A DNA stretch of 47,176 bases from an uncultured Rhodospirillaceae bacterium (GCA_964398175.1 CAYNLV010000001.1:1-47176), one strand, 5' to 3'; positions 2,947-36,552 are shown, counted from the stretch's first letter. Numbers and translations are program-made. Notes: generated by a model not told the origin, from the letters alone.

Positions 2947-2956
2947 CGTTCCTGTC

Positions 2957-19684: not shown

Positions 19685-20452
19685 ATGGAATGGATAGATG
19701 AAGCGATTCTATTATCGGCGCGGCCGCATGGCGAAACGGCGGCTATCGTCACTTTGCTGACGCTTCAGCATGGGCGGCACGCGGGGCTTGTGCAGGGCGG
19801 GCAGGGGCGGAGCAAGCAAAGCCTTTTGCAGCCCGGCAACCATGTCAAGGCGCGGTGGCGCGCACGGCTGCTCGATCACTTGGGCAATTATTCGCTGGAG
19901 GTTGTGACTTCGCACGCCGCGCCGTGGTTTGACCATCCGGAGGTTCTGTCCATCATCGCGAGTGCGTGCGCCATAACGGAAGCCGCGTTGCCCGAGCGCC
20001 AGCCAATGCCCGGCGTTTATGCGGGCTTGCGGGCGCTTCTGAGTTGGCCCGATCCTGAACTTTGGGCTCCGGCCTATGTGAAATGGGAAACGGAACTTTT
20101 GCGCGCGCTGGGTTTCGGACTTGACCTGTCGCAATGCGCCGCAACGGGAACGACGGAAAATCTCAGCCATGTCAGTCCGCGCACGGGCCGCGCTGTCTCG
20201 CGCGAGGCGGCCACGCCGTACAAAGATAAATTGTTTAAACTGCCCGCGTTTTTGTGCGGCATGGCGGAAGAATGGACGATGGAAGATATTGTGAACGGTC
20301 TCGACATGACCGGGCATTTTCTGACGCGGCACGTGTTCGCGCACAATCATGGCCGCGCGCCGGGAGCTCACGATCTTCCGCCGGCAAGGGAGAGGTTGGT
20401 GGAATTTTATCGCAAGGATGCCGGCTTTGATCAGGTGAACGCCAAGACGTGA
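19685..20452 (+). CDS. recO: DNA repair protein RecO
   Basis: MEWIDEAILLSARPHGETAAIVTLLTLQHGRHAGLV is the typical RecO OB-fold N-terminus. The 255-aa length fits. A C-terminal Cys/His-poor alphaproteobacterial-type helical domain is present. Confidence 0.85.
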   Translation: MEWIDEAILLSARPHGETAAIVTLLTLQHGRHAGLVQGGQGRSKQSLLQPGNHVKARWRARLLDHLGNYSLEVVTSHAAPWFDHPEVLSIIASACAITEAALPERQPMPGVYAGLRALLSWPDPELWAPAYVKWETELLRALGFGLDLSQCAATGTTENLSHVSPRTGRAVSREAATPYKDKLFKLPAFLCGMAEEWTMEDIVNGLDMTGHFLTRHVFAHNHGRAPGAHDLPPARERLVEFYRKDAGFDQVNAKT

Positions 20453-21045
20453 GTTTGGACAGAATTATTTAAAGTTTTTCCATCGGGCGGCGCAGGACGT
20501 TTCAAATCAAGAACCGTCTTTTGTTCCGGGGTCGGCGTGCAAAAACCAGACTTTTTAATCATCGTGGACATATAAGTTCCAAACGAGCTTTCGGAACAAT
20601 CCTCAAGAAATTGCTCATCAAGAAGCCAGCCCAATGAAGCATCCACCATCTGCAAGTGTTCGCAAGAAGGATCTCGCCTATCTGAATAGAAGAAGAACGT
20701 CAGCCTGGGTTTTGTTGCAGACTCGTGTTGTGAGAGGTTAAGAGGAACAATGGCAACGCTCTCCCCAAAGCTTGAATCGCCAAGAATAATAATGCCTTGG
20801 ATGCGTTTATTTTTTTCAAGCGTAATAATTTTAATCTCAGAAAGCCGGAAGTAGCCTTTACTCTTATCAGCAAAATTCAAAAAGCCATATTGTATAAATT
20901 CCATAAAGTCAGGTTCGCAATTTTTACTGATTTCTTTGAAGGCTTCTGAAAGATCGGCATACGCCTTAGGATAGGTTTCTTCAAACGCGGGCGAAAACTT
21001 GAAGATTTCTTTGAAAAACTCTTCGTTTAACTCTATTTTTTCCAT
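20431..21045 (-). CDS. Hypothetical protein, low-GC orphan
   Basis: I chose the ATG at 21045 (GGAAAGGA upstream) over the TTG at 21066. The protein starts MEKIELNEEFFKEIFKFSPAFEETYPKAY... and I recognised no motif. The sequence is visibly more AT-rich than flanking recO and parC. Its 3' end overlaps the recO 3' end by 22 nt (convergent). Confidence 0.55.
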   Translation of the reverse strand: MEKIELNEEFFKEIFKFSPAFEETYPKAYADLSEAFKEISKNCEPDFMEFIQYGFLNFADKSKGYFRLSEIKIITLEKNKRIQGIIILGDSSFGESVAIVPLNLSQHESATKPRLTFFFYSDRRDPSCEHLQMVDASLGWLLDEQFLEDCSESSFGTYMSTMIKKSGFCTPTPEQKTVLDLKRPAPPDGKTLNNSVQTHVLAFT

Positions 21046-21219
21046 AATCGTATCCTTTCCAAACAATCATTAACTAGTCTATGCGAAAATAAACAAGGCA
21101 TGCAATCATTTACATTAGGAAAGAGCAAGGCTAAAGTATGGTTAATTTCTTTTGTGGGAATGTATCCAGTAAACTCTTATGTTTGAACACAGGCAAAATA
21201 TGATTCTTGATCTTAATTC

Positions 21220-23466
21220 ATGACGCGTACCTCAACCAAAACCCGCACCCCTGCCGAGCCGCCGCAGCCAATCGTTGACAAGAAACTGTCCGAGGCTTTG
21301 TCGGAGCGTTACCTGTCCTACGCGCTGTCCACCATCATGGCGCGGTCGCTGCCGGATGTGCGCGATGGTATGAAGCCGGTGCATCGGCGTCTGCTTTACG
21401 CGATGCGCGAATTGAAGCTGGAGCCCAACCTGCCGCCAAAGAAATCGGCGCGCGTCGTTGGCGACGTGATCGGCAAGTTCCATCCGCATGGCGATACGGC
21501 TGTGTACGAAGCCCTTGTGCGCTTGGCGCAGGATTTTTCGCAACGCTACCCGCTCATCGAAGGGCAGGGCAATTTCGGCAACATCGACGGCGATAGCGCG
21601 GCGGCGATGCGCTACACCGAAGCGCGCCTGACCGAAGTCGCGCGCCTGCTGCTCGATGGCATCGACGAAGACGCGGTGGCGTTTCGCGCGACGTACGACA
21701 GCAGCGGGACGGAGCCTGCCGTGCTTCCGGCGGCGTTTCCCAATCTGCTGGCGAACGGGGCGGCGGGCATTGCCGTCGGCATGGCCACATCCATCCCGCC
21801 GCATAACGTGAGCGAGCTTTGCGACGCGATGCGCCATCTCATCCAGCATCCGAACGCGACGATGGATAAAATCGTCGCCTTCGTTCCCGGGCCTGACTTT
21901 CCGACGGGCGGCGTTCTCGTCGAAGGCCGCGAGGCGATTGTCGAAGCCTATAAAACGGGGCGCGGCTCGTTCCGCCTCCGCGCGAAGTGGGAAAAGGAAG
22001 AACTGCGCCAGGGCATGTGGCAAATCGTCGTGACGGAAATTCCGTATCAGGTGCAAAAGTCGCGCCTGATCGAAAAAATCGCCGAGCTTCTGGCGGCGCG
22101 CAAGCTGCCGATGCTGGACGACGTTCGCGACGAGTCCGCGGACGACGTGCGCCTGATCCTCGTGCCGAAAAGCCGCAACGTCGATCCGGCCGTGCTGATG
22201 GAATCCCTGTTCCGGCAAACGGAACTGGAGTCGAAAATCCCGCTCAACCTCAACGTGCTGGACAAGGAAGGCGTGCCGCAGGTGATGGACTTGCGCCGCG
22301 CGTTGCAGGCGTATCTCGACCACCGGCAGGACGTGTTGGTGCGCCGCTCGAAGCATCAGTTGGCGCAAATCGAAGCGCGGCTTGAAGTGTTGGCGGGTTA
22401 TCTGATTGCATATCTCAATCTCGACAAGGTCATCAAGATTATACGCACGGAAGACGAGCCGAAGCCCGTGTTAATGAAAACATTCAAACTGACCGAAGTG
22501 CAGGCCGAAGCCATCTTGAATATGCGTCTGCGCAGTCTTCGCAAGCTGGAGGAAATGCAGATCAAGGGCGAGCAGAAAGAACTTTCCGGCAAACAAGCGG
22601 AATTGAAAAAGCTGCTTAAGGACGAAGGTTTGCGCTGGCAGAAGATTGATAAAGAGCTTGCCGATCTTAAACAGAAATTCGGCAAGGCGACGAAGCTTGG
22701 CATGCGGCGCACGGAATTGGCTGAACCGCCGGCGGATATCGATGTTCCTGTCGAAGCCGTTGTCGAGCGTGAAGACGTGACGATTGTTTGTTCGGACAAG
22801 GGGTGGATCCGGGCCATGAAAGGCCATGCCATCGCCGTCGATACGATCAAATACAAAGAGGGCGATGAGGAACGGTTTATCCTTGAAGCCGAAACGACGG
22901 ATAAAATACTTCTTTTCGCGAGCAACGGGCGTTTCTACACGCTGGGCGCGGACAAACTGCCGGGCGGGCGCGGTTTCGGCGAACCCGTGCGCCTCATGAT
23001 TGACCTGCCGAACGAGGCGGAGATCGTCGGCATCGTGAAATATCAGCCGGAACAAAAGTTCATTGTCGCGTCGAACGACGGGCGCGGGTTTATCGTAAAG
23101 GCCGAAGACGTGCTGGCGCAAACGCGCAACGGCAAACAGGTGTTGAACGTGAACGGCAAAGGCCGCGCGGTCGCATTTGCGCTGGCGGGCGGCGATACAA
23201 TCGCGGTCATTGGCACGAACCGGAAATTGCTTCTGTTCCCGGCGGAACAGTTGCCTGAAATGACGCGCGGACGCGGCGTGATCCTCCAGCGTTACAAGGA
23301 CGGCGAACTGTCGGACGTGAAAAGCTTCAACATAAAAGAGGGCCTGACGTGGCGTTCGGGCGATCGCGAACGCACGGAAACGGATCTTCGCGCCTGGCGC
23401 GGCGAACGCGCGCAAGCGGGCCGTTTGCCGCCAAACGGCTTCACGCGCAGCAACAGGTTTTCCTGA
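21220..23466 (+). CDS. parC: DNA topoisomerase IV subunit A
   Basis: [48 protein letters not shown], and the active-site region [10 protein letters not shown]. The 748-aa length fits ParC rather than GyrA. Confidence 0.9.
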
Positions 23467-23478
23467 CCCAACACGCGC

Positions 23479-25332
23479 TCATACTGGTTGCGGCGCGCGA
23501 AGGTGTGGCGCGAGCACAACTTTATGGCGCGGATTGCCGGGCAGGATAATCGGATAAACGTTTTCCTCCGTATCGATGCGGCAGTCCAGTAAGGCCGGGC
23601 CGGGATGCCCTAAAAATTCTTTCATCGTGGCTTTAAGCTCCTGCGGTTTCGAACAACGCAAGCCTTTCCAGCCATAAGCGCCTGCCAAGGCAATAAAGTC
23701 AGGCTGAATTTCCATCGAACTTTCGGAATACCGGCGGTCATAAACGAGTTCCTGCCATTCGCGCACCATGCCAAGACCTTGGTTGTTCAGGAGCAGAACC
23801 TTAACAGGCAATTTATACTGCGTAGCCGTTATCATCTCCTGCGCGTTCATCTGAATCGAACCGTCGCCGCTTACGCATACAACTGTCGAATCCGGATGAG
23901 CCAGTTGCGTGCCGATAGCTGCGGGCAAACCGAAACCCATTGTGCCGAAGCCGCCCGAAGTGATGAGCCGGTTGGGCCGTTCAAAACCATAATATTGGGC
24001 GACCCACATTTGGTGCTGGCCGACGTCCGTGACAATGAAGGCGTCGTTGAGGCGCGTCAGCGAATCAAGCTGCTGTATGATCGCTTGAGGTTTTAGCGTG
24101 TCTTGTGCGGCTTCAAAGCTTAAGGAGTCAGCGCGCCGCCACGCATCAATTTCCCGCCACCATTCCTGCTGAACGGAACGATCGAGAGCGTCTTTACGAT
24201 CTTTCAATTCCACAAGAAGATCATTCATGGTTCGTGAGCAATCGCCGACAAGCCCGACATCGGCTGGTATCAGTTTATTGATTGCTGCAGGGTCGATGTC
24301 GATGTGAATGATCTTCGCGTGAGACGCAAAACCATTGCATGTGCTTGTGATGCGGTCATCGAAACGCGCGCCGATGGCGATGATCAAATCGGCGTTGCAA
24401 AGGGCCATGTTGGCTTCAATTGTGCCGTGCATGCCCGGCATCCCCAGCCATTGCGGATCCGAAGCCGGGAAAGCGCCCAAGCCCATCAAGGTCGATGTGA
24501 CAGGAAAACCCGTTATTTCCGCGAATGTCCGCAAAAGCTTTGAGGCCTCCGGTAACCCTTTGGATTTCGATCGTTCATTCACGACGCCGCCGCCTGTGTA
24601 CAAAATCGGGCGTTTGGCGGCCGCTATCAGGGCGACGGCTTTCTGAATGTTTTCCTTGTGGGTAGCCGGATAATCGTCGGCTTTATCGCATAGAGCGTTT
24701 TGAACGATATCCCACTCGGATGGACACCTGTATAGGCCGTTCGCGGTTTGAATATCTTTCGGAATGTCAATCAAGACAGGGCCGGGACGGCCTGACCGCG
24801 CTACGTAAAAAGCCTCATGCAGAATTTGCGGCAAATCCTTTATGCCGCGAACGAGATAGTTCTTTTTTGTGCACGGTCTTGTGATAGACGTGATGTCGCA
24901 TTCCTGAAAAGCTTGCGTGCCGAGAAGATTTAACGGCACCTGCCCGGTTATGACGATAAGCGGAACGGAATCCTGAAAAGCGGTATGAATCCCAGTCAAC
25001 GTATTGGTTGCGCCCGGGCCGGATGTCACCAGAACAACGCCGACGTTGCCGGTAGAACGCGCATAGCCATCGGCAGCATGCACGGCGCCTTGTTCATGAC
25101 GCACCAGAATGTGGCGGACATCTTTTTGTCGTTTATAGGCGTCGTACGTTGGCAGGATCGCGCCGCCCGGATAGCCAAAAACGTACTTAACGTTATTTTC
25201 GGCAAGCGCCGTCCATACCATTTCGGCGCCGGTCATCTTGAGGGCAAGTTGAGATAAAGCCAGATGCGCTGGAAAGCCTTCGCTTTCAGGGCCATATGCC
25301 TTGGCTTCTTTCGTTTCCATTTTTTTCTCCAT
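23479..25332 (-). CDS. ilvB: Acetolactate synthase (acetohydroxyacid synthase) large catalytic subunit, biosynthetic type
   Basis: GYPGGAILPTYDA, HEQGAVHAADGYARSTG, SGPGATN, ThDP motif GDGSIQMNAQEMITA...LLNNQGLGMVREWQ. The second ATG at 25320 has the better RBS (GGAGA). No small-subunit gene follows; parC ends 12 bp away on the opposite strand. Confidence 0.9.
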   Translation of the reverse strand: MEKKMETKEAKAYGPESEGFPAHLALSQLALKMTGAEMVWTALAENNVKYVFGYPGGAILPTYDAYKRQKDVRHILVRHEQGAVHAADGYARSTGNVGVVLVTSGPGATNTLTGIHTAFQDSVPLIVITGQVPLNLLGTQAFQECDITSITRPCTKKNYLVRGIKDLPQILHEAFYVARSGRPGPVLIDIPKDIQTANGLYRCPSEWDIVQNALCDKADDYPATHKENIQKAVALIAAAKRPILYTGGGVVNERSKSKGLPEASKLLRTFAEITGFPVTSTLMGLGAFPASDPQWLGMPGMHGTIEANMALCNADLIIAIGARFDDRITSTCNGFASHAKIIHIDIDPAAINKLIPADVGLVGDCSRTMNDLLVELKDRKDALDRSVQQEWWREIDAWRRADSLSFEAAQDTLKPQAIIQQLDSLTRLNDAFIVTDVGQHQMWVAQYYGFERPNRLITSGGFGTMGFGLPAAIGTQLAHPDSTVVCVSGDGSIQMNAQEMITATQYKLPVKVLLLNNQGLGMVREWQELVYDRRYSESSMEIQPDFIALAGAYGWKGLRCSKPQELKATMKEFLGHPGPALLDCRIDTEENVYPIILPGNPRHKVVLAPHLRAPQPV

Positions 25333-25358
25333 CGTTTCTCGTCATTTTCGATTTGGGC

Positions 25359-25385
25359 AATAAAAAAGGCCCTTGAAAGGGCCTT
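25359..25385 (-). terminator. Intrinsic terminator hairpin of leader copy 1
   Basis: Minus strand AAGGCCCU-UUCA-AGGGCCUU followed by UUUUAUU. The stem is a perfect 8 bp. Confidence 0.6.
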
Positions 25386-25416
25386 GGGTGCGCGCTGGCG
25401 GTCGTGTGATCGAAGA

Positions 25417-25461
25417 TCACCCCGTGTCCAGCGCACACCTAACGAGCAGAATTATGTTCAT
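25417..25461 (-). CDS. Putative ilv leader peptide MNIILLVRCALDTG
   Basis: ATG AAC ATA ATT CTG CTC GTT AGG TGT GCG CTG GAC ACG GGG TGA, read directly. It contains an Ile-Ile-Leu-Leu-Val run. The SD is weak or absent. Confidence 0.5.
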   Translation of the reverse strand: MNIILLVRCALDTG

Positions 25462-25516
25462 TGGTCTTTTTTCATCCTCTGCAAAAAACCGGTTGTTTCA
25501 AAACAGTCTCCGTCGA

Positions 25517-26308
25517 TTACCTAGGCTCAGGCTTGGCGCCGCGCCTCGATGGTTTTCCGTTTGTCGCGTTGCCGTTTTCCCGGCGCGGGCAAAGGAAAGG
25601 CTTGAAGCCCTCAACGAGTTCATATTTCTTTGTCCCGGGATCGAACCTCAGGCCGTAAGCGCCAAGGCCCATAACGCCGTTGCCATAAAAATTTTTCCAT
25701 CGTTCTTCCATAGCCTCGCGTTCGGGTCTTTCCGCTTCTTCTTGAGCCACGGCTTTTTTTCGTTCCTTTGTAACCTTGTGAAGAAGCGCCTGGGCTTGCC
25801 CGAAGGTGAGGCGGACTTCCGTGCGGTCGGGCCGAAGGAAACACATTTTGCCGTCCTTGAAATTCATATGAAGCGCGGCGATGTTCTGGCCTTTCAGAAA
25901 GAAAGCTTTTCTGTCGTCAACGAGGGGAAGAGTTACGAATTCTTCACGGCCTCGTCCGCCGAGGCTGGCCTGAACGGGGCTTTCAAAAAGAGGGTTCGGG
26001 CTTTGGTAAAAATCGGCTTCGAAGGTAAAAACCCCCAGATTGGCGGTAACCTTCAGAGTGTCCCTTCCCAAATAGTCGTCGTAGCGCTCCATCCGGACTT
26101 CGGGCCAAAAGTGCGCTTTTCTGTTCCAAAGAGTCTCGTTCTGTGTGTCGAACGCGGCGAAAAGGCCGTCGTGAAATTTGTCGAGCGCTTCGCGGGAATC
26201 CGTAACGAGCGTGAGCGTGGGTTTTTTTACGGGCGCCTCGAACGTCATGGCATCGCCTCCCTGATCGTCGGGGCCGAAGAGCGTGGTTTCTACATTTAAC
26301 TTTGTCAT
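25517..26308 (-). CDS. Hypothetical protein (263 aa), preceded by its own ilv-type leader
   Basis: Strong RBS (AGGAGA 6 nt upstream of the ATG at 26308). The residue composition is balanced and protein-like, with a Lys/Arg/Glu-rich helix (KERKKAVAQEEAERPEREAMEERW) and a basic C-terminal tail. I recognised no family motif. The 308-aa ORF on the opposite strand looks like a shadow ORF. Confidence 0.65.
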   Translation of the reverse strand: MTKLNVETTLFGPDDQGGDAMTFEAPVKKPTLTLVTDSREALDKFHDGLFAAFDTQNETLWNRKAHFWPEVRMERYDDYLGRDTLKVTANLGVFTFEADFYQSPNPLFESPVQASLGGRGREEFVTLPLVDDRKAFFLKGQNIAALHMNFKDGKMCFLRPDRTEVRLTFGQAQALLHKVTKERKKAVAQEEAERPEREAMEERWKNFYGNGVMGLGAYGLRFDPGTKKYELVEGFKPFLCPRRENGNATNGKPSRRGAKPEPR

Positions 26309-26346
26309 CTTGTTCTCCTATTTTTTTCTCGCGTTAAATTCGGGCA

Positions 26347-26371
26347 ATAAAAAAGGCCCTTGGAAGGGCCT
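26347..26371 (-). terminator. Intrinsic terminator hairpin of leader copy 2
   Basis: Minus strand AGGCCCU-UCCA-AGGGCCU followed by UUUUUUAUU. Confidence 0.55.
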
Positions 26372-26396
26372 GGGTGCGCGTTGGCGGTCGTGCGAT

Positions 26397-26450
26397 CTAG
26401 GATCGCCCCGTGTCCAACGCCCATCTAATAACCAACATAAAATGACGCAT
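26397..26450 (-). CDS. Putative leader peptide MRHFMLVIRWALDTGRS (or MLVIRWALDTGRS from the internal ATG at 26438)
   Basis: ATG CGT CAT TTT ATG TTG GTT ATT AGA TGG GCG TTG GAC ACG GGG CGA TCC TAG, read directly. It has a Leu-Val-Ile run and shares the R-x-ALDTG tail with copy 1. Confidence 0.45.
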   Translation of the reverse strand: MRHFMLVIRWALDTGRS

Positions 26451-26482
26451 AAGTTTCAGCTTTCTGCTTTCGTGTGGAGAGC

Positions 26483-26512
26483 ATCCTAAAGTCTGAAAGT
26501 CAACGCAGTCAA
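26483..26512 (-). promoter_or_regulatory. Possible sigma70-type promoter for leader copy 2 (TTGACT, 18-nt spacer, TAGGAT)
   Basis: Minus strand TTGACTgcgTTGACTttcagactTTAGGATgctc lies about 35 nt upstream of the leader ATG. This is a motif match only. Confidence 0.25.
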
Positions 26513-26611: not shown

Positions 26612-27694
26612 TTAATGACGGGACTTTTGACTCGCTGACTTCAACTGGCCGCACGCCGCCATAATGTCGCGGCCACGGGGTGTGCGGATGGGGCTGGCGT
26701 AACCCGCACGGTTAACTATATCCCCGAACTTTTCAATCGTATCCCAATCAGGACATTCGAACGGTGCACCGGGCCATGGGTTAAAGGGGATAAGGTTAAT
26801 TTTGGACGGTATGCCCGCGAGCAGTTTAACCAATGCGCGCGCGTCCGCAGGGCTGTCGTTCATGCCTTTCAACATGATGTATTCAAACGTAATGCGCCGT
26901 GCATTGCTCACGCCCGGATAATTACGGCAAGCGTTCAACAGTTCCCTGATCGGGTATTTGCGGTTGATGGGGACGAGCTGATCGCGCAGTTCGTCCGTCA
27001 CCGCGTGCAAACTGATAGCAAGCCCCACGCCGAGTTCCGCGCCGCATCTTTCGATCATCGGCACGACGCCAGAGGTCGAAAGCGTGATTTTGCGCCGGCC
27101 AATTGCGATGCCGTCGCTATCCATGATGATCTTTATTGCCTTCGCGACGTTGTCGTAATTGAACAATGGCTCGCCCATGCCCATCATCACAATATTGGAG
27201 AGCAGGCGTTGTTCTTTGGTCGAGGGCCATTCGCCAAGTTCATCCCGCGCAAGCATCACCTGCATGACAATTTCGCTTGCATCCAGATCGCGCACCAACC
27301 GCTGAGTGCCTGTGTGACAAAACTTGCACGTCATTGTGCACCCGATCTGGCTCGACACGCAGAGGGCCCCGCGGTCTTTTTCGGGAATGTGCACACATTC
27401 GACTTCTTCTCTATCCGCCATGCGCAGAAGCCATTTTCGTGTTCCATCGACAGAGTGTTGGCTCGCGGCGATATCCGGGCGTCCGATGACGAAATGCTCG
27501 GCCAGCTTGATACGAACTGGTTTGGCAAGGTTGGTCATGCGGTCAAAGTCACGAAAGCCGTGGCAATACATCCATGACCAGATCTGCTTGGCTCGAAATG
27601 ATTCGAATCCCAGCTGGCTCAGCTCGGTTTTCAGTTCCTTCAAACTGAGACCCACGAGATTGAGGCGGTCCGTTTTGTAATTTGATTCGGCCAT
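26612..27694 (-). CDS. rlmN: 23S rRNA/tRNA adenine-C2 methyltransferase RlmN (radical SAM)
   Basis: [11 protein letters not shown], radical-SAM CxxxCxxC in [27 protein letters not shown], and C-terminal [12 protein letters not shown] preferred the ATG at 27694 over the TTG at 27712. Confidence 0.9.
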
Positions 27695-27983
27695 TAAGAC
27701 TCTTTTGCACAAGATGATAACGGTTATTTATGAGCTAAAATCTTAACATTATTGCGGGTAAACGCACACACAAGAAAAGAGAACTTTCACTTCTTAAAAA
27801 GCCCGTGTAGCTTGCGCCTAAGACCCAAGCCTTTAACTATTCCTAATCACTTGTTAACCATCCGAAGGTTAAGACCTGAAAGGGGGAGCGCACGGCCCCG
27901 TAACAGGTGAGTTATGTCCTTGGTTTCAGCCCTTTTAAGAGGAATCGAGGACATGTCCCGTTTCCTGGTAATGGAGTTTAAAC

Positions 27984-28562
27984 GTGGCAAAAAAAGACGA
28001 TAAACCTGAAAGAGAAGATAAAGACGACGAAAAAGAAAAAAAAGGCGCCGAGGACGGGGATGCCGAAGGCGAAGAAGGCGCGTCGGAAGATCTTGAGGGG
28101 GGCGGGAAAAAACTCGGCAAGAAAATGCTGATCATCATCGGCGTTGCAGCTGTTCTTTTGCTTGGCGGCGGTGTTGGCGCGACGCTCTATTTCACGGGTG
28201 TGATAGGCAAGAAGGGTTCAGCCGAGGGAACGCATGAAATTGCGGCAACAAAAGGACGGGCTATCTACTATTCTCTGGGCGATATTCTGGTTAACCTGAG
28301 CGGTGAAGGTAAACGGCCCAACTTTTTGAAGATTAAAGTTAGCCTTGAACTGGCTGATGAAAAGGATGTTCAGATTATGGACGCCATCAAGCCGCGCATC
28401 ATCGATAATTTTCAGGTATACTTGCGCGAATTACGTATTGAAGACTTGCGAGGGTCAGCTGGGCTTTATCGTTTGCGTGAGGAACTGTTATTGCGGGTTA
28501 CCGAAGCGGCGCAGCCAGTTCGTGTGCGCGATGTCTTGTTTCAGGAGATGTTGGTCCAGTAA
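27984..28562 (+). CDS. fliL: Flagellar basal body-associated protein FliL
   Basis: GTG start with GGAG 7 nt upstream. An acidic/basic N-terminal tail is followed by one TM (MLIIIGVAAVLLLGGGVGATLYF). The FliL core reads YYSLGDILVNLSGEGKRPNFLKIKVSLEL...IKPRIIDNFQVYLRELRIEDL. Confidence 0.8.
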   Translation: MAKKDDKPEREDKDDEKEKKGAEDGDAEGEEGASEDLEGGGKKLGKKMLIIIGVAAVLLLGGGVGATLYFTGVIGKKGSAEGTHEIAATKGRAIYYSLGDILVNLSGEGKRPNFLKIKVSLELADEKDVQIMDAIKPRIIDNFQVYLRELRIEDLRGSAGLYRLREELLLRVTEAAQPVRVRDVLFQEMLVQ

Positions 28563-28598
28563 AAAAGGGTAATCATTAACCTCTAGCCACTAATACCG

Positions 28599-29672
28599 AT
28601 GGACGATACAGCTAAACCCGAAATGACCGAAGAAGAACGCCAGGCCGCCGAATGGGCCGCCATGGCCGATGGCGATGGCGGGGAAGCGGCCGCTGAAGGC
28701 GGTGCGGCGCGCGTTCTAAGTCAGCATGAAATTGACAGCCTTCTGGGCTTCAGCGGCGCGGGGCAGCAACAGGACAACTCCGGCATTATGGCGCTCATCA
28801 ACAGCGCGCTCGTCAATTACGAGCGCCTGCCGATGTTGGAGGTCGTGTTCGACCGGCTTGTGCGCATGATGTCGACAAGTTTGCGCAATTTTACGTCCGA
28901 CAACGTCGAAGTCAGCCTCGATCAAATCACGTCCGTGCGTTTCGGCGATTACCTGAACTCAATCCCGTTGCCCGCCATGTTGGCCGTTTTTAAGGCCGAG
29001 GAATGGGACAACTCGGCGCTGATGACCATCGACAGCGCCATGATCTATTCGATCGTTGACGTTCTGCTCGGCGGTCGCCGTGGCACGGCGGCGATGCGCA
29101 TCGAGGGCCGCCCATACACTACCATCGAACGCAATCTCGTCGAACGGCTGGTGCGTGTCGTTCTCGCCGACGTCAGTGGCGCTTTTGATCCTTTGTCGCC
29201 GGTCACATTCCGGTTTGACCGGCTGGAAACCAATCCGCGTTTTGCGACGATTGCACGGCCTGCAAATGCGGCCGTCTTGGCTAAACTGCGTATTGATATG
29301 GAAGACCGGGGCGGGCGCATCGAAATTCTTATTCCCTACGCGACCCTTGAGCCGATACGTGAATTACTGCTCCAGATGTTCATGGGGGAAAAATTCGGAC
29401 GGGACTCGATTTGGGAAACGCACTTGGGGAACGAATTGTTGTTGACGAATATGCACATGAATGCGGTGCTGGACGAAGTAACCATGCCTCTTGGCGACGT
29501 GATTAATTGGAAGGTCGGTTCGCGTATCATGCTGAACGTGAAACCGGACGATCTTATCGCGTTACGCGCGGGCGAAATTACGCTGTTTCAGGGGCGCATG
29601 GGATCGTTAAACAGCAAAATCGCTGTGCGTGTTGAGGGGGTATCGCTCGATAATAACAAACATCAGGATTAA
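28599..29672 (+). CDS. fliM: Flagellar motor switch protein FliM
   Basis: N-terminal CheY-P binding motif LSQHEIDSLLGF. The FliM middle domain reads FDRLVRMMSTSLRNFT...V.FGDYL. The C-terminal SpoA-like domain reads INWKVGSRIML...GRMGSLNSKIAVRV. Confidence 0.9.
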   Translation: MDDTAKPEMTEEERQAAEWAAMADGDGGEAAAEGGAARVLSQHEIDSLLGFSGAGQQQDNSGIMALINSALVNYERLPMLEVVFDRLVRMMSTSLRNFTSDNVEVSLDQITSVRFGDYLNSIPLPAMLAVFKAEEWDNSALMTIDSAMIYSIVDVLLGGRRGTAAMRIEGRPYTTIERNLVERLVRVVLADVSGAFDPLSPVTFRFDRLETNPRFATIARPANAAVLAKLRIDMEDRGGRIEILIPYATLEPIRELLLQMFMGEKFGRDSIWETHLGNELLLTNMHMNAVLDEVTMPLGDVINWKVGSRIMLNVKPDDLIALRAGEITLFQGRMGSLNSKIAVRVEGVSLDNNKHQD

Positions 29673-29675
29673 ACA

Positions 29676-30188
29676 ATGGGCCAAATCATTTCTTTTTTGC
29701 TTGATATCATATTAATCGGCCTGCTGATCACAGGAATCGCCTACGCCGTGCGTTTAATGCAGCAGATGGCAGGGTTGCGTGCAAGCCGTGCTGAGATGGA
29801 ACGCTTTGTGGCCGATTTTAGTGCGACGGTGCAACGGGCGGAAGCTGGGATTCGCGGATTGAAACAGGCGGCGCGCACGGGCGGTGACGATCTGGAACAA
29901 CTGATCGAAAAAGCCCAGTCGCTTCGGGATGAATTGCAGTTTTTGGTGGAAAGCGCGGATCAAATAGCGTCGCGGTTAAGTGATGCGGCCACGACCATAA
30001 CCCGGACAACGGCAGCGGAAACAGCGGCGCCGCTTCAAGAGACTGCAAAAGAAGTGAAACCGGCAACAATTTCTTCGATTGCGAGCGCAAAACAGGCTCC
30101 GGGAGAAAAAAGGCCGTCTAAATCCGGCGTTCCAGCGCCGTCAGCCGCGGAGAGGGAATTGTTGCAAGCCCTCGAAAAGCTGGGATGA
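29676..30188 (+). CDS. Small single-TM coiled-coil protein (DUF6468-like) in the flagellar operon
   Basis: N-terminal TM IISFLLDIILIGLLITGIAYAV, then a helical region (RAEMERFVADFSATVQRAEAGIRGLKQAA). It is translationally close-coupled to fliM, with a 3-nt gap. The family assignment is from memory of alphaproteobacterial fliM neighbours. Confidence 0.5.
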   Translation: MGQIISFLLDIILIGLLITGIAYAVRLMQQMAGLRASRAEMERFVADFSATVQRAEAGIRGLKQAARTGGDDLEQLIEKAQSLRDELQFLVESADQIASRLSDAATTITRTTAAETAAPLQETAKEVKPATISSIASAKQAPGEKRPSKSGVPAPSAAERELLQALEKLG

Positions 30189-30206
30189 TATGGGGCGAGG
30201 TAACCT

Positions 30207-30956
30207 ATGACTGATCAAAAGCCTTGGTATATCATTCAGCCGCGCACCATCCTGCCACTCATGATCTTTTTGGGCGTGCTGGTGGTTGGCATACGCCTGA
30301 ATGATATATGGGATTCCCTGGCGGAGGGGCGTATTTTTCAGGCGGTCACGCCTTCCAAAGCGGCATCCGAAGGGGAGGTTCCCAAGATAAACACGCCATC
30401 CTTGGCGCCGGCTTCTGGCACAACGGATTCAGTCCCCGCGAAAGGAGAAAAGCCGGCGGCAGAAGCCAAAGCAGCGCCTCAATCTGAAAACAAAACGGCG
30501 CCAACTGAAACCAAGGCTAAACCAAGCAAACCTCCCATGGATTCATCATCGGCAGAGATGGAGTTGGTCAAACAACTTACCGGGCGCCGTGAACAACTTG
30601 ACCAAAGAGCGCGTGAACTTGATATGTATGAAGCCCGCCTGCGTGTCGCAGAGCAGCGGGTTGACCAGAAAATGAAAGAAATGGAAACGTTGAGAACCCA
30701 ATTACAGACTATGGTCAATCAACTCAACGCGTCACAGCAAGCCCAGATCGAAAATCTGGTGAAAATCTATGAAACCATGAAGCCCAAGGAAGCCGCGCGT
30801 ATCTTTGAATCGCTGGAGCTTCCGGTTTTGCTGGGCGTTGTCCAAAAAATGAAGCCCCAGCGAACGGCGGCCGTTATGGCGGAAATGGCCCCTGAAAAGG
30901 CTAAAGAAATTACGATTGCCTTAACGAAACAGGATCAGTTACCCCAGATTAAGTGA
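30207..30956 (+). CDS. MotE-like / MgtE-N-like flagellar motility protein
   Basis: One N-terminal TM, a Pro/Ala/Lys-rich linker, a coiled coil, and C-terminal LVKIYETMKPKEAARIFESLELPVLLGVVQKMKPQRTAAVMAEMAPEKAKEIT, typical of MotE/FlbB-type proteins. Confidence 0.55.
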   Translation: MTDQKPWYIIQPRTILPLMIFLGVLVVGIRLNDIWDSLAEGRIFQAVTPSKAASEGEVPKINTPSLAPASGTTDSVPAKGEKPAAEAKAAPQSENKTAPTETKAKPSKPPMDSSSAEMELVKQLTGRREQLDQRARELDMYEARLRVAEQRVDQKMKEMETLRTQLQTMVNQLNASQQAQIENLVKIYETMKPKEAARIFESLELPVLLGVVQKMKPQRTAAVMAEMAPEKAKEITIALTKQDQLPQIK

Positions 30957-31154
30957 TGCTAAAACCTTAAGAAATTCTTGTTTTACCCCGCGACTGGCCA
31001 CAAACAGGGCAAAAGACGGTTTAGCTTCGCCTCTGGTAACTATTTTTTCAGTATCTCCGGGCTAAGTTTTGGTTGAACACAAACCGTCGGTAGATTGCTT
31101 CGGCATGCCGCGAAGGTTTGTGTGTGCAGCATTAGGTTTGCAGGGAGTTGGTCA

Positions 31155-31541
31155 ATGCCTGTTGATATGAACATGAACATCCTCATCGTCGACGATTACA
31201 AGACGATGCTGCGCATTGTTGAAAACCTGCTGAAACAGCTGGGGTTCAAAAACATCCATCAGGCGACGGATGGAACGATGGCGCTTCGCATGCTTCGCGA
31301 TGGCAGTTTCGGCATGATCATATCGGACTGGAACATGGAACCCATGACCGGGCTGCAACTGCTCAAAGAAGTCCGTGCCGACAACAAGCTGCGGGTTATT
31401 CCGTTTATTATGGTAACGGCGGAAAGCAAGGTCGAAAACGTCGCCGCCGCTAAAGAAGCGGGCGTGAACAACTATATCGTCAAACCGTTTAATGCTGAAA
31501 CCCTGAAACAGAAGATCACCGCTGTTTTGGGAGCCTTCTAG
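31155..31541 (+). CDS. cheY: Chemotaxis response regulator CheY (single receiver domain)
   Basis: I chose the ATG at 31155 (GGGAG upstream) rather than the track start at 31095. Receiver motifs: ILIVDDYKTM (acidic pocket), MIISDWNMEPMTG (phospho-Asp), MVTAE, NNYIVKPF. The product is 128 aa. Confidence 0.85.
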   Translation: MPVDMNMNILIVDDYKTMLRIVENLLKQLGFKNIHQATDGTMALRMLRDGSFGMIISDWNMEPMTGLQLLKEVRADNKLRVIPFIMVTAESKVENVAAAKEAGVNNYIVKPFNAETLKQKITAVLGAF

Positions 31542-31576
31542 AGACTGATCTGTTTTTTGCCGGGGAGGATAATCCC

Positions 31577-32230
31577 ATGACCGATACCGAACGATTGAAT
31601 GCTTTTGAAACGAACTTGCACAAACAAATCAGGCTGGCGAACGAAGCTGCCCAGCATCCTTTGTCCGCGGACGACATCACGTCGATTGTGCGGCAGGTGA
31701 TTGATTCCCTATCTGGGGACGTTGCTGCGTCAGATCTGAAGTTCTACGCTGAGCTTGAAGATCTTGCGACCTATATTCGCAGGGCCAAGAAAGAGATTGC
31801 GGCCATAAAACCGAAAGATATCAACATCAACCACATACCCCACGCGACAAACGAGCTTGATGCCGTAGTTGGGGCCACGGAGGATGCGACGAATAAGATT
31901 ATGGACGTGTGCGACACGATCACAGGTCTTGCCGAAACGTCGTCGGGAGAGTTCAAGAACAAACTCATTGCGTGCACGACGCGAATCTATGAAGCCTGCA
32001 ACTTCCAGGATATAACCGGCCAGCGAATCACCAAGGTGGTCCAAACCCTGAAGTACATCGATGGCAAGATCGAAGCTTTGCTGACCGCTCTTGGGGAAGA
32101 GATTCACCGCGGCGAAGGTGCGGGCGCAGGAGAGCCCTCCGACGCCGAAAAAGCACTTTTGAACGGGCCGCAGCTGCCCCAGCATGCCATTGATCAGGAG
32201 GCCATCGACAAGCTGCTTTCAGGGAATTAA
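31577..32230 (+). CDS. cheZ: CheZ-family CheY-P phosphatase
   Basis: RBS GGGGAGGA. Catalytic DxxxQ motif in ACNFQDITGQRITKVVQ (compare E. coli FQDLTGQ). The C-terminal CheY-binding-like peptide is QEAIDKLLSGN. It lies immediately downstream of cheY. Confidence 0.7.
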   Translation: MTDTERLNAFETNLHKQIRLANEAAQHPLSADDITSIVRQVIDSLSGDVAASDLKFYAELEDLATYIRRAKKEIAAIKPKDININHIPHATNELDAVVGATEDATNKIMDVCDTITGLAETSSGEFKNKLIACTTRIYEACNFQDITGQRITKVVQTLKYIDGKIEALLTALGEEIHRGEGAGAGEPSDAEKALLNGPQLPQHAIDQEAIDKLLSGN

Positions 32231-32361
32231 AAGAAAGCGTACAGGCGTCTTTCGGCCAAACATCTCCACGGCCGGACCTTGTCTTTGTCATACGGGAGAA
32301 TCTTCCCGTAAGGCGGAGTCTGCGTGTTATCCCACCGTCGAATCAGTATAAGCTGGAAACT

Positions 32362-35300
32362 ATGATGCCGAATCTGTCTTTATTTCCGTGGCGGAAAGTC
32401 ATCCGGCTTGTTTTTTTCGGGCTGGCCATAGCCGGTTGGGGAGCTTCGCCTCAAGCAGCCGAAAAAACGACATCGTCGGCTGCCGTCAATCTTACCTTGC
32501 GCATAGGCATTCATACGGATTTTGACCGGTTGATTTTTGAAGGACCTCGCGGTCTCGACTATGAAATCCATCGTGACGGAACAAAGGTGACAATCCAGTT
32601 TGCGTCGCCCGCGACGATTAACCTGAGCCCGGTCATGAAGTTGACGCGCGCCAAACGATTTACGGCCACGGGTTCGAATAAGCCGCTGGCGGTAAGCTTC
32701 ACTGTGGCCGAAGGCGCAATCATTAAGGACTTGGTAAACGGATCGGCGGTTATCGTTGATATCTTTGGTGCGACGGAAACCGCCAAAACGGAGCCGAATG
32801 CGTCAGGGCAGACTGAGCCAAAGAACGCTACGACTCCTGCAGCGGCCACGGAAACGACTCTGGCTTCCACCGCAACCGAAAAAACGGGACCTGCCTTGGG
32901 GCCAAAGGCGGTTCCGGAAAGCGAGAAAGCCGAAACTAAGCCCGAAACGCCGGCTGCCGAAACGGCTGATACGACCAAGGATAACACGGACAAAAAAACG
33001 GCGCCTTCTGAAAAAGCGGCGTCATCCCTTTCGACGGAACTCGGCGCAACGCCTCAATTGGTTGCGTCTTTCGATCCCAAGGTGAAAACGGGTGTGGCCA
33101 TTTTCGCGCGCGGCGGCATATGCACAATCCTTTTCGACCGCAAGCTAACGTTAACTCTTGCCGCGCTGACAAATGGGTCAATACCTGCCGAGCGGTTACA
33201 AACCCTCGAATTACCGCAAAACACCGGCTACCGCTTTCCGGTTCCCCCGGGCGTCAATGTGCGGGCAAGCCGCAACGGAACGGTTTGGCAAATTTTCCTA
33301 AACAAGAAGCACGGGGAAATTACGGTTTCGACCGAACTCATTTCTCAACCGGAATATGCCCTTGGCGCGCGACAGTTGCTGCCGGTGACGGATGCGCCGA
33401 AACCGGTAAAATTCACCGATCCGGTCGTTGGCGATGAACTGATCGTGGCGCCCCTGCTGGATGCCTTCTCGGTTAATACGCCCCGGCGCATGGCGGATTA
33501 CATTCTCATGCCGGCGGCGCAGGGGCTTGTGATCAAGCCTCTCCATGAAAAAGTGGTTTTACAAACGGTATCGGACGGGATAGAAATTACGGCTGAAGGC
33601 GGTCTGAAGCTTTCATCGGCTAAAGACGCCGGGATCCGCTTTTCCGCAAGCAAAAAGGCGTGGGCCGCCGCCAGCACGAAATCGATGTTTGATTTTGCGG
33701 TATGGAAAGGCAAGCCGAACGAAAACTTTACATCGAACCGCCAGCAATTAATGCAAACGATTGTCGATGTGCCGGAGATTGAAAGGAATCTGGCGCGCCT
33801 GGAATTGGCGCGTTTTTACTTTGCGCATGGCATGGGTAGGGAAGCCATGTCGCTGCTCGATTTGCTTGTTCAACAAGCGCCAGATCTGGTATCCCATTCT
33901 GAGTTTTTGGCATTGCGCGGGGCCGTGCGCCTGCTGGCGGGACGTACGCAGGATGGCCTGAAGGACTTGAGCGATCCCGAACTGATTAGGCAGCCTGAGA
34001 TTGAACTCTGGCGGGGGATTGGGGCGGCGCAATTGCGTGATTGGGCGGCCGCAGAAGAGCGGTTCAGTTTTTCCGAAAGCATTCTCAACGCCTATCCTGA
34101 GCCGTTCTATTCGCGTTTTTGGGTGCTCGCGATTGAAGCCGCGCTTTCTGTAAACAAGGATCAGGAAGCCGCGGAGTGGCTCGACCGCCTGGAAGCTCAG
34201 AACTATCTACCGGAAATCGAGCCTGCTCTTCGCTATTTGCGCGGCGTGTTGCGTAGTAAGGCTGGTCACGCCGATATGGCGGAATCTTTGTGGAAGAGCG
34301 TGGCTCAAGCGAATGACCGTCTTTATAAAATCCGGGCCGAATTGGCCTTAATCGATCTTGGCGTGGCAACCCGTTCGATTACGCCACTGCAGGCCGTTGA
34401 ACGCCTTGAAGGCCTCCGTTACGCTTGGCGCGGCGACGATCTGGAACTTGATATTCTTCACCGGCTGGGTAGTTTTTACATTGAAGGCAAGAATTACAGG
34501 CCTGGCCTGACCGTGCTTGCGCAAGCGGTGCGCCTGTTCCCCGACAGTCCCTTGACGCCGGGCATAAGTGCCGAGATGGCCAAGACCTTCCATGATATCT
34601 TTCTTGGCGAAGAAGCCCTTGTGAACATGTCGCCTGTGGAGGCATTGACGCTCTATCAGGATTTCCAGAATATTATGCCAACGGGCGAAGAAGGGATTGC
34701 CGTTGTGCGTAATCTTACGGAAAGGCTTGTGGATGTCGATTTACTGGATCAGGCCGCGCAGTTGCTTGAAAACCAGATTAAAAACCTGAAAGGCGAAGAG
34801 AAAGTCAAAACCGCCGCGCGTCTTGCCGCGATTCGTCTGCTGGATCACAAACCGGAAGCCGCCATAGCTGCCTTAGATGCGAGCAAGGATGACATGCCTT
34901 CCTCGGGCGCTTCCGTTGCCGACCTACAGAACGAGCGGCTCTTGTTGCGCGCCCGCGCGTTCTCGGAACAGAAGAAATTCGACGAAGCGCTCGCATTGCT
35001 GCAAGACAACACGACCGCCCCGGCGAAATTGCTTCGCGCGGACATCACCATGCGGGCCCAGCGCTGGAAAGACGCGGCGCTAGCCCTTCTGGATATGATC
35101 GGCCCGCCGCCGAAAGCGGGCGAACTGGTCACGAAAGAACAGGCGCAATGGCTGGTGAATTGCGCCATCGCCATGTCGCTCGATAACGACACGGCGGGGC
35201 TCGACAAGCTGGCGATTAACTTTGGTCCGGCGATGGCCGGCACGCCGCAAAGCGATTCTTTCCGGGTTTTGACGCGGCCTGAGAAAACCGGAGAGTTACG

Positions 35301-35415
35301 CGACATTGCGGCGGCCCAATCCAGGATTACTGAAGTTGATATGTTCCGCGGTTTTCTGGATTCCTACCGCGCAGGCGGAGCGAAAGAAAAGAAAACGGAG
35401 AAGAAGAAAAAGTGA
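32362..35415 (+). CDS. Large secreted/periplasmic TPR-repeat protein (1017 aa), function unknown
   Basis: Signal peptide VIRLVFFGLAIAGWGASPQAAE. An AMIN-like N-terminal beta module (LRIGIHTDFDRLIFEG...VIVDIFG) is followed by a Thr/Pro/Ala/Lys-rich linker and then about 550 aa of TPR-like helical repeats. The tail is Lys-rich. Confidence 0.7.
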   Translation: MMPNLSLFPWRKVIRLVFFGLAIAGWGASPQAAEKTTSSAAVNLTLRIGIHTDFDRLIFEGPRGLDYEIHRDGTKVTIQFASPATINLSPVMKLTRAKRFTATGSNKPLAVSFTVAEGAIIKDLVNGSAVIVDIFGATETAKTEPNASGQTEPKNATTPAAATETTLASTATEKTGPALGPKAVPESEKAETKPETPAAETADTTKDNTDKKTAPSEKAASSLSTELGATPQLVASFDPKVKTGVAIFARGGICTILFDRKLTLTLAALTNGSIPAERLQTLELPQNTGYRFPVPPGVNVRASRNGTVWQIFLNKKHGEITVSTELISQPEYALGARQLLPVTDAPKPVKFTDPVVGDELIVAPLLDAFSVNTPRRMADYILMPAAQGLVIKPLHEKVVLQTVSDGIEITAEGGLKLSSAKDAGIRFSASKKAWAAASTKSMFDFAVWKGKPNENFTSNRQQLMQTIVDVPEIERNLARLELARFYFAHGMGREAMSLLDLLVQQAPDLVSHSEFLALRGAVRLLAGRTQDGLKDLSDPELIRQPEIELWRGIGAAQLRDWAAAEERFSFSESILNAYPEPFYSRFWVLAIEAALSVNKDQEAAEWLDRLEAQNYLPEIEPALRYLRGVLRSKAGHADMAESLWKSVAQANDRLYKIRAELALIDLGVATRSITPLQAVERLEGLRYAWRGDDLELDILHRLGSFYIEGKNYRPGLTVLAQAVRLFPDSPLTPGISAEMAKTFHDIFLGEEALVNMSPVEALTLYQDFQNIMPTGEEGIAVVRNLTERLVDVDLLDQAAQLLENQIKNLKGEEKVKTAARLAAIRLLDHKPEAAIAALDASKDDMPSSGASVADLQNERLLLRARAFSEQKKFDEALALLQDNTTAPAKLLRADITMRAQRWKDAALALLDMIGPPPKAGELVTKEQAQWLVNCAIAMSLDNDTAGLDKLAINFGPAMAGTPQSDSFRVLTRPEKTGELRDIAAAQSRITEVDMFRGFLDSYRAGGAKEKKTEKKKK

Positions 35416-35550
35416 AATACATGCAAGAGTATGTTTTTTCGATGCAAGCTTGAACACAAGAGTAACCAGCGTTTTTTCTTGGTTTTTATTCAATAAAAAT
35501 TAAATCTTGCGATTGCATGGTGATGGCTTCAACGCCCTTGGAAAAGCGCC

Positions 35551-36552
35551 ATGACTCTTTCGTATTACCAGCGCCCTGTTTTCGCCGCTGTTCTTATCGG
35601 CGGCGTTGTTCCTTTTTTAGCCTTATGGCCGCGCGTAAAGGGCGATGACCTCTTCGCGGTCTCGATCGCTGTTGGCGTTCTGTTGATCGGCGGATGGTGG
35701 TATAGCCGGCGCGTCGCGCGCCGTTTTCTTGGCCTTTTAGCCGCGCAATCATCGGCGGAGGAAGCCGCTCAAACAAATGCAGACGCGGTAAATATGCTGG
35801 CGGCCGTAAGGGAGAAGGCCAAAGCGACGCTTTTGCCGATTAGGGATGACGCAAGACGTTTAACCCAACTTACAGAGGAACATCAAAAACGCGCCAGCGA
35901 AACGACATCGTCGGCCGCGCGCGCGACGGAAAGCTCCACCATTATCGCCAGCGCGGTTGAGGAAATGAACAGCGCCATCCGGGAAATCGGCCGGCAGGCG
36001 GACGAAGCGGCCGGAATTACGCATTCTGCGGTTGACAAAGTGCAAGGCGCGGATGAGTCCGCAAACGCGCTTGCCGAACGCGCGGATCAGATTGTCACGG
36101 TTGTCGAGCTTATCCGTTCGGTTGCTGAGCGCACAAATCTGCTGGCGCTGAACGCCACGATCGAAGCGGCGCGCGCGGGCGAACATGGGCGCGGCTTTGC
36201 CGTTGTGGCGCAAGAAGTCAAAGCTTTGGCTAACCAGACGGCTGAAGCCACGGCGCAGATTGAGGCGCAGATCGGCGATGTGCGCTTGTCGTCGCAAATG
36301 ACGCGTGAAAACATGCAGGCGATCAATCAGGTTATTCAGCAAATCAACGCGATCACGCTTGCCATTAAAGGAGCCTTGCAGCAACAAACGGCGGCGACCA
36401 AGGAAATCGCGACAAGCGCGCAATCGGCGACGGCAGCCACAAATGGGGTCAACACAGGCATTTCACATCTGCTGGTCACAACCGAACAAATCCGCCGTGT
36501 TTGCGTGGATCTGGATGAAAAAGCGAGGGAACTCGACGGCGCTGTTGGTTAA
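35551..36552 (+). CDS. Methyl-accepting chemotaxis protein, minimal form (two TM segments plus signalling domain, almost no periplasmic loop, no obvious HAMP)
   Basis: The conserved hairpin tip reads [37 protein letters not shown]. Two TM segments lie within the first ~55 aa. Confidence 0.85.

Follow-up and report, generated by a model that had tools for sequence, protein, structure and literature searches.

A lineage-restricted gene lies between two copies of a branched-chain leader ahead of the acetolactate synthase gene in an uncultured alphaproteobacterium

An alphaproteobacterial "ilvIH cis regulatory" element is listed in PMC2573895, which cites Vitreschak et al. 2004 for it, and attenuation at the Caulobacter ilvBN leader is described in PMC4117421, with reference to Tarleton et al. 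1994. The Rfam family RF02502 (Atu_C8) has the consensus AUG AUU AUU CUU GUG GUG, which reads MIILVV, and after it come a long hairpin and a terminator; we infer that it is a Rhizobiales Ile/Leu/Val leader that was catalogued as a small RNA. Sensors that follow one another on a single transcript are also known, namely, tandem riboswitches and T-boxes and the two leader ORFs of the Salmonella mgtCBR leader.

We examined a locus that resembles both kinds of system within a 47,176-nucleotide stretch of DNA from an uncultured Rhodospirillaceae bacterium (here called the window). On the minus strand, a promoter-like site is followed by leader 2, a 263-aa orphan ORF, leader 1, and the acetohydroxyacid (acetolactate) synthase (AHAS) gene ilvB. 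This set of features is flanked by rlmN (26612-27712) and by parC (21220-23466, plus strand), which is convergent with ilvB and lies 12 nt past its stop codon. An earlier note on this DNA had read the same order of leaders and genes from the sequence, and ORF calls together with our own reading of the sequence bear it out. The features, in the direction of the minus strand, are as follows.

26483-26512, minus strand: predicted sigma-70-like promoter, TTGACT-18 nt-TAGGAT, upstream of leader 2.
About 26339-26457, minus strand: leader 2, with a leader ORF at 26397-26450 encoding MRHFMLVIRWALDTGRS and a stop codon; Atu_C8 score of 29.2 bits, E value of 0.0022.
26315-26319, minus strand: Shine-Dalgarno sequence AGGAG, 6 nt before the ATG of the orphan.
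25517-26308, minus strand: orphan gene encoding a hydrophilic protein of 263 aa (~30 kDa, pI 8.4) with 1 Ile.
About 25351-25468, minus strand: leader 1, with a leader ORF at 25417-25461 encoding MNIILLVRCALDTG and a stop codon; Atu_C8 score of 42.9 bits, E value of 4.8e-7.
23479-25332, minus strand: ilvB-type AHAS large-subunit gene, 617 aa from the first ATG or 613 aa from the ATG at 25320.

Of the two possible starts of ilvB, the ATG at 25320 has the better spacing to a GGAG. The product is a biosynthetic-type AHAS large subunit (TIGR00118, 742.7 bits against a cutoff of 538) in which all three domains of thiamine diphosphate (ThDP) enzymes are found (TPP_enzyme_N, _M, and _C in Pfam), and the ThDP motif GDG...NN and the HEQ motif are legible in its translation. 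It is a divergent member of its family, the best homologues outside the sister species described below being just 55 to 58% identical. No small subunit with an ACT or ALS_ss_C domain adjoins ilvB or is encoded anywhere else in the 47-kb window, in agreement with the earlier note, which had remarked that no ilvN or ilvH gene is adjacent. Only 55 nt separate the stop codon of the orphan from the ATG of the leader 1 peptide, with no further terminator in that interval.

Each leader contains a short ORF that carries a string of Ile/Leu/Val codons and whose stop codon falls inside a long hairpin, P1. A G+C-rich terminator stem begins 1 to 4 nt after P1 and is followed by a T-run. In leader 1, P1 is formed by pairing of 25428-25439 with 25387-25398 and the terminator has an 8-bp stem (25366-25385), with a folding z score of -4.9; in leader 2, the terminator has a 7-bp stem (26354-26371). 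The earlier note had credited the orphan with its own copy of the branched-chain leader, and the two copies indeed form an 80-nt direct repeat spaced 986 bp apart, with 89% identity over the part from P1 to the terminator. A 20-nt core of the leader occurs exactly twice in the window, against 0.04 occurrences expected by chance. The P1 helix also shows compensatory changes in a small sample of seven sequences (CG to UA in two of them and GC to AU in one), the inner hairpin varies among UA, CG, and UG in the same sample, and in the leader of L017, a differing sequence (GCGCAUCGCC/GGCGAUGCGC) builds the same helix.

Neither leader matches any Rfam family at the gathering score. In a permissive search, both align over their full length to Atu_C8, for which the gathering threshold is 50 bits; leaders from two further contigs, L010 (34.1 bits) and L011 (30.1 bits), also score below it. 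The four are divergent relatives of Atu_C8 rather than members under the Rfam cutoff. Leader peptides related to those of leaders 1 and 2 are found in L008, L010, L011, and L017. In the alphaproteobacterial metagenomic contigs L008 (MFTKLILVRCALDMRS) and L010 (MRQNMLIVRGALNGRS), a leader of the same type precedes the AHAS gene, and in a third such contig, L017 (MRNFVIVLRGRIAADG), it precedes a canonical ilvI-ilvH pair. Judged by sequence and position, both of our leaders belong to the alphaproteobacterial ilvIH/ilvBN leader type. They share with it the short ORF bearing an Ile/Leu/Val run, the stop codon within a long hairpin, the intrinsic terminator, a conserved AUUGCC past the T-run, and the location upstream of an AHAS large-subunit gene. 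They differ from it in that two copies stand in series on one strand, the promoter-proximal copy precedes a gene without ilv homology, no ilvH follows the synthase gene, and both copies score below the Rfam threshold.

Among about 15 billion proteins, the orphan has a single homologue, which belongs to one sister species. In 5.8 billion clusters, a word-indexed search recovered only the identical protein and another at 67% identity, and when 1.84 billion representatives were searched exhaustively with phmmer, the sole addition was a 40-aa match to a filamin-repeat protein. We take this match to be due to chance: its E value of 1.8e-4 is inflated by six repeated copies within the 3,982-aa protein, and the Filamin model of Pfam misses the orphan. 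The earlier note recognized no motif in the protein, and no Pfam model matches it at an E value of ≤1, nor does NCBIfam offer any meaningful match. No family for it exists in PHROGs or PADLOC, which were searched for a phage or defense origin, and a profile search of PDB sequences found no relative, its one match having an E value of 0.32. The protein has a GRAVY of -0.71 and, by eye, no evident signal peptide or membrane segment.

The homologous locus of the sister species was recovered three times (L001, L007, and L011, the second labeled "Alphaproteobacteria bacterium AnMBR.bin438"), each time with the order rlmN, leader 2, orphan, leader 1, ilvB, parC, although L007 ends inside ilvB. In L001, ilvB carries about 13 frame-disrupting indels and the orphan frame is open, and we considered whether ilvB might be a pseudogene in this species, which would have weighed heavily against a partnership of the orphan with the synthase. 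L007 and L011, however, lack these indels, and in L011 both ilvB (610 aa) and the leader 1 peptide are intact; moreover, the C terminus of the orphan itself is frameshifted in L001. The indels are therefore assembly errors and permit no inference that the orphan has outlived the synthase.

The ORF between the leaders is a real protein-coding gene, as judged by comparison of the two species. Between the window and L011, the orphan products are 68.8% identical in amino acid sequence (dN of 0.19, dS of 0.97, omega of 0.19), and the nucleotide differences fall 45, 48, and 100 on the three codon positions. The other five frames of the region give omega values of 0.33 to 1.45, so that the low value belongs to the annotated frame only. 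The Shine-Dalgarno sequence of the orphan is kept as a GGAG at the same spacing in the sister species, and its codon-position GC (GC1 above GC2, GC3 resembling that of the neighboring genes) gives no compositional signal of horizontal transfer. The ribosome-binding site noticed earlier is confirmed. For ilvB, the same comparison gives 67.7% identity (dN of 0.23, dS of 1.27, omega of 0.18); rlmN (83% identity, dN of 0.11, dS of 1.64) and parC (93% identity, dN of 0.04, dS of 0.62) each have an omega of 0.07.

The leaders themselves are more conserved than this background. Over P1 and the terminator, the leader 2 orthologues of the two species are 97% identical and the leader 1 orthologues are 86% identical, whereas flanking coding DNA is about 75% identical and the dS of neighboring genes is about 1. 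The control of the orphan thus seems to be under selection at least as strong as that acting on the control of ilvB.

A consensus scan of the minus strand between rlmN and ilvB found the site at 26483-26512 as the sole sigma-70-like promoter, and its hexamers and their spacing are identical in the sister species. Since this single site lies upstream of leader 2, it suggests that leader 2, the orphan, leader 1, and ilvB form one operon with two attenuators in series. The scan found no site before leader 1. By eye, a weak candidate (TTGAAA-16-GAGGAT) can be discerned there, with a -35 element that is not conserved in the second species; such an internal promoter might make ilvB partly independent of leader 2.

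The composition of the orphan protein is unusual in one respect. Isoleucine accounts for 1 of its 263 residues, against 5.8% in the other proteins of the window (binomial P of ~2.5e-6), and for 2 of the 261 residues of its orthologue, at positions that the two proteins do not share. Leucine and valine are normal, phenylalanine is doubled, and the isoleucine content of ilvB is normal at 6.6%. Alves and Savageau are said to have described, in 2005, a cognate amino acid bias of biosynthetic enzymes, and Baudouin-Cornu and colleagues reportedly found, in 2001, that sulfur-assimilation proteins are poor in sulfur. The orphan resembles such nutrient-depleted proteins in having 0.4% Ile, against the 5.8% background, under a leader of the Ile/Leu/Val-sensing type. 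It departs from them in being depleted in Ile alone and in that the putatively coregulated AHAS is not depleted. Alternatively, the depletion could be left over from the way the gene originated and not be adaptive.

We propose, with a probability of about one-half, that the orphan, a genuine lineage-restricted gene, is the first in a doubly attenuated operon and that it is made under branched-chain limitation. It would be the promoter-proximal cistron of a small operon running from the promoter through leader 2, the orphan, and leader 1 to ilvB. With charged Ile, Leu, and Val tRNAs in plentiful supply, polymerase starting at the single promoter would get no farther than leader 2; with these tRNAs scarce, the polymerase would read through leader 2 and yield orphan mRNA. 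Leader 1 would then impose a second decision, on whether the polymerase enters ilvB, so that the orphan would need one read-through event and the synthase two. The orphan protein would be made specifically under branched-chain, and above all isoleucine, limitation. Because it lies between two copies of a branched-chain leader upstream of ilvB, the orphan is probably switched on by Ile/Leu/Val shortage. As in tandem riboswitches, T-boxes, and the mgtCBR leader, serial termination decisions on related signals would be made here and can sharpen or stage a response; unlike in those systems, a full protein gene lies between the sensors, the first of which would gate gene 1 while both would gate gene 2.

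One step of this scheme calls for caution. We folded six leaders, both truncated and with the ribosome-covered part masked, and in no case was the terminator displaced or its 5' arm paired upstream; P1 and the terminator are adjacent and do not overlap. By eye, the L017 leader before ilvI-ilvH has the same hairpin-plus-terminator layout and no obvious antiterminator. The lack of an evident classical 2:3 antiterminator therefore concerns the leader family as a whole, the canonical ilvI-ilvH operon included, rather than this locus alone, and no antiterminator competing with the terminator was found in these leaders. Our use of the term "attenuator" accordingly refers to the Ile/Leu/Val-rich leader ORF, the terminator, and the position and resemblance of the leaders within their family, and should be read as a putative assignment. 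The proposal of the earlier note that expression is tied to the charging of Ile/Leu/Val tRNAs is therefore supported in its regulatory part, by the leader type linked to AHAS and by the strong conservation of leader 2, but not in respect of the switch itself.

We selected the three next-nearest relatives by ParC similarity (84 to 86% identity) and contig extent, and none of them has ilvB, the orphan, or the leader at this site; in one (L014), parC and rlmN are neighbors with an unrelated 123-aa ORF in between. The cassette thus appears to be present or absent as a unit. Several of the ParC relatives carry the label "Bdellovibrionales bacterium," the order under which NCBI files Micavibrio. According to PMC3189940, Micavibrio aeruginosavorus, an alphaproteobacterial predator, does not synthesize Ile and Val; that our host is Micavibrio-like is only a guess. 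A scan of 185,579 species genomes for the leader pattern recovered only the sister species (L007), apart from four single-match stretches that we take to be chance, and among metagenome contigs, the sister species (L011) was again the only one recovered, apart from one chance match within coding-like sequence.

A -10-like hexamer and the region of translation initiation (GGAG, 6 nt, and ATG before both genes) seem to form part of the repeat unit, and beyond 80 nt past the terminators the units are no more similar than shuffled sequence. The apparent content of the unit fits either duplication of the control region 5' of ilvB or integration by a single crossover. We also considered that the orphan might be a decayed or frameshifted copy of ilvB, ilvD, or another gene; tblastn, blastn, and tblastx searches against the window, L008, and L010 yielded nothing significant.

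The alternative that survives best, which we regard as possible but well short of an even chance, is that the orphan is a young passenger. It would have arisen in, or been inserted into, a duplicated ilvB 5' region and would have inherited attenuator control, and any function that it serves would be unrelated to branched-chain amino acids. The route could have been a tandem duplication or the single-crossover integration of circular DNA carrying a copy of the leader. Such an origin would account for a protein without homologues beyond two sister species, flanked by direct repeats of a leader whose repeat unit appears to span a -10-like hexamer and an initiation region. It would also be in keeping with the low confidence of structure predictions for the orphan, given below, and with an omega above that of the housekeeping neighbors. 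It sits less easily with purifying selection sustained over a dS of about 1 and with the better conservation of leader 2 than of leader 1, which suggests that control of the orphan matters. The near absence of isoleucine, too, fits a protein selected for expression under isoleucine limitation, and no residual similarity to ilvB or to the rest of the window documents such an origin.

A second alternative concerns AHAS itself. AHAS large subunits are usually poorly active without their small subunit, and the earlier note suggested that the orphan is a new accessory or regulatory partner of the synthase or serves another function in branched-chain homeostasis. We consider it unlikely that the orphan stands in for the missing IlvH/IlvN as an accessory or regulatory partner of a non-ACT kind. 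The idea draws on the lack of a small-subunit gene next to ilvB and in the remainder of the window, on the linkage of the orphan to ilvB in both species that have it, and on the gain or loss of the cassette as a unit. The similar rates of the orphan and ilvB, both of which evolve faster than the flanking genes, point the same way. The orphan is, moreover, like IlvH/IlvN in being a modest-sized, soluble protein encoded beside an AHAS large subunit that has no neighboring small subunit, and it may be coregulated with it. At 263 aa, however, it is larger than the ~165 to 185 aa of IlvH/IlvN, and Pfam detects in it, at an E value of ≤1, neither the N-terminal ACT domain (ACT, ACT_AHAS_ss, or ACT_5) nor the C-terminal ALS_ss_C domain. 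Alignment of a two-sequence orphan profile with a genuine IlvH (L016, 4000-4557) by hhalign gave a probability of 0.1% (E value of 0.5), and the orphan is therefore not a diverged ACT small subunit.

The gene order argues in the same direction. In L016 and L017, ilvH directly follows ilvI, as is canonical, while the orphan precedes ilvB, the two being separated by a leader and its terminator. This arrangement would be unusual for obligate subunits, and it implies that the orphan and AHAS would not be produced at a constant ratio. The AHAS relatives closest to ours, L008 and L010 (57 to 58% identity), keep the leader but have neither an adjacent small subunit nor an orphan-like gene (L008 has the order leader-ilvB-ilvD, and L010 has leader-ilvB alone), so that one would more simply expect an ilvH at some other place in the genome. 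A synteny survey had been suggested in the earlier note. It did place the sole homologue beside ilvB and the leaders in the sister species, but two related species give almost no power to detect co-occurrence, and the linkage counts for little. The suggested structural check was carried out too: AlphaFold2 reached a pLDDT of 42.2 from the single sequence and 45.6 from a two-sequence alignment, so that the models are unusable, and Foldseek found no PDB match at an E value of ≤0.001 with a model of such confidence. The functional idea of the earlier note, whether partnership or a role in branched-chain homeostasis, is thus not established. The boldest form of the partnership strikes us as slightly less probable still: the orphan would represent a new class of non-ACT partner, acting as an activator, stabilizer, or feedback sensor of an AHAS that has lost IlvH/IlvN, nearly free of isoleucine so that it could be made under isoleucine limitation and produced ahead of the enzyme by the serial attenuators.

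The weakest alternative, that the ORF is a chance frame between the leaders or that the 308-aa antisense ORF at 25373-26299 (plus strand), longer still in the second species, is the real gene, gains something from the confinement of homologues to one sister species, but our comparison effectively refutes it, as purifying selection acts solely in the annotated frame with third-position changes dominating, the ATG and its Shine-Dalgarno sequence are kept in both species, the GC pattern by codon position is typical of the genome, omega is about 1 in the frame of the long antisense ORF, and 7 to 11 stop codons interrupt each of the remaining frames.

The regulatory design of the ilv leader was known before; what is new is a serial, duplicated variant attached to an orphan protein, which we consider modestly interesting. 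Its wider significance is limited, as the orphan occurs in only two uncultured alphaproteobacterial species and any link to branched-chain metabolism is putative. The switching mechanism of the alphaproteobacterial ilvIH leader family deserves a direct look, and this point may matter more generally. If the model of a doubly attenuated operon is true, a ribosome-sensing amino acid attenuator has been duplicated and put in charge of a gene of restricted taxonomic range, and a pair of attenuators acting in stages along a single transcript would offer a simple route by which a starvation response with two thresholds could arise naturally. The predicted inducing condition, limitation for Ile, Leu, or Val, makes an otherwise untestable "hypothetical protein" testable.

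The leaders preceding ilvB, which encodes the acetolactate synthase (AHAS) large subunit, and the orphan 263-aa ORF belong to the ilvIH type, as do those of three other contigs: L008 and L010, which carry the closest AHAS relatives, and L017, in which the leader precedes a canonical ilvI-ilvH pair.

Window 25351-25468 (-), leader 1, before ilvB
Window 26339-26457 (-), leader 2, before the orphan
L008 4853-4960, ilvIH-type leader
L010 4853-4962, ilvIH-type leader
L017 3186-3295, ilvIH-type leader

In these leaders the terminator adjoins the long hairpin, yet the two structures are not mutually exclusive, and no antiterminator was found in any ilvIH-type leader examined (six by folding, that of L017 by eye). 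A five-codon mini-ORF lies ahead of the leader 1 ORF both here and in the sister species, the only other known carrier of the orphan (assemblies L001, L007 and L011).

Window 25464-25481 (-), mini-ORF
L011 about 3670-3687, mini-ORF

Its product is MKKDQ in the window versus MRQNG in the sister species, each followed by a stop, and in both species an ATGA overlap joins the end of the mini-ORF to the leader 1 ORF start. The mini-ORF coincides with a GAGGAT hexamer similar to the -10 element in the promoter of leader 2.

Opposite the orphan lies a long antisense ORF, which in the sister species extends across both leaders as well.

Window 25373-26299 (+), antisense ORF
L007 10-1437 (+), antisense ORF

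We rejected it as a gene: dN/dS in its frame is about 1, which marks it as a by-product of the codon usage of the sense gene, the orphan. Within the latter, a 40-residue stretch predicted to be beta-rich (residues 95-135, window 25904-26026, -; TFEADFYQSPNPLFESPVQASL...) resembles the filamin-repeat ends of P0003, a 3982-aa protein, at about 40% identity. The E value of 1.8e-4 is boosted by six copies, and the likeness is probably due to chance.

Assembly L001 (GCA_040770265.1) contains many indels of 1-2 nt, which disrupt ilvB, a glycosyltransferase gene and a histidine kinase gene.

L001 3180-4995, disrupted
L001 8324-9798, disrupted
L001 10086-12116, disrupted

These are assembly errors rather than pseudogenes, since the indels are absent from L007 and L011 wherever the assemblies overlap. 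In the sister species, the stretch from rlmN to the promoter of leader 2 also contains an 11-nt unit repeated perfectly in tandem (GCACCGTTGAA, 4.7 copies); the window has no such array.

L011 2561-2612, repeat array
L001 1915-1970, same array
L007 about 1450-1500, same array

Elsewhere, the 47-kb window holds no ilv or leu gene beyond ilvB.

Window 377-5451 (-), type II/IV secretion or pilus cluster (T2SSE ATPase, secretin, prepilin-like protein)
Window 20431-21066 (-), 211-aa ORF between recO and parC
Window 27984-36552 (+), flagellar and chemotaxis block (FliL, FliM, CheY-like, CheZ, 1017-aa TPR protein, MCP)

The 211-aa ORF has an unusually low G+C content (41%, versus 53% across the window), and Phe makes up 9.5% of its residues. 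It belongs to no Pfam family, and tblastn gave no match to it in either the sister species or the next relatives.

The next-nearest relatives (L014 9256-9930; L013; L015), with ParC 84-86% identical, lack the leader-orphan-leader-ilvB cassette entirely. Their parC-rlmN site holds an unrelated 123-aa ORF, which has no Pfam family, or is rearranged.

The closest AHAS relatives share 57-58% identity and retain the Ile/Leu/Val leader.

L008 5001-8679, AHAS region
L010 5001-6788, AHAS region

No small-subunit gene adjoins AHAS in either contig; in L008 ilvD comes after the AHAS gene, and in L010 that gene is solitary. In this clade, it may be a wider habit for AHAS genes to lack a neighbouring ilvH.
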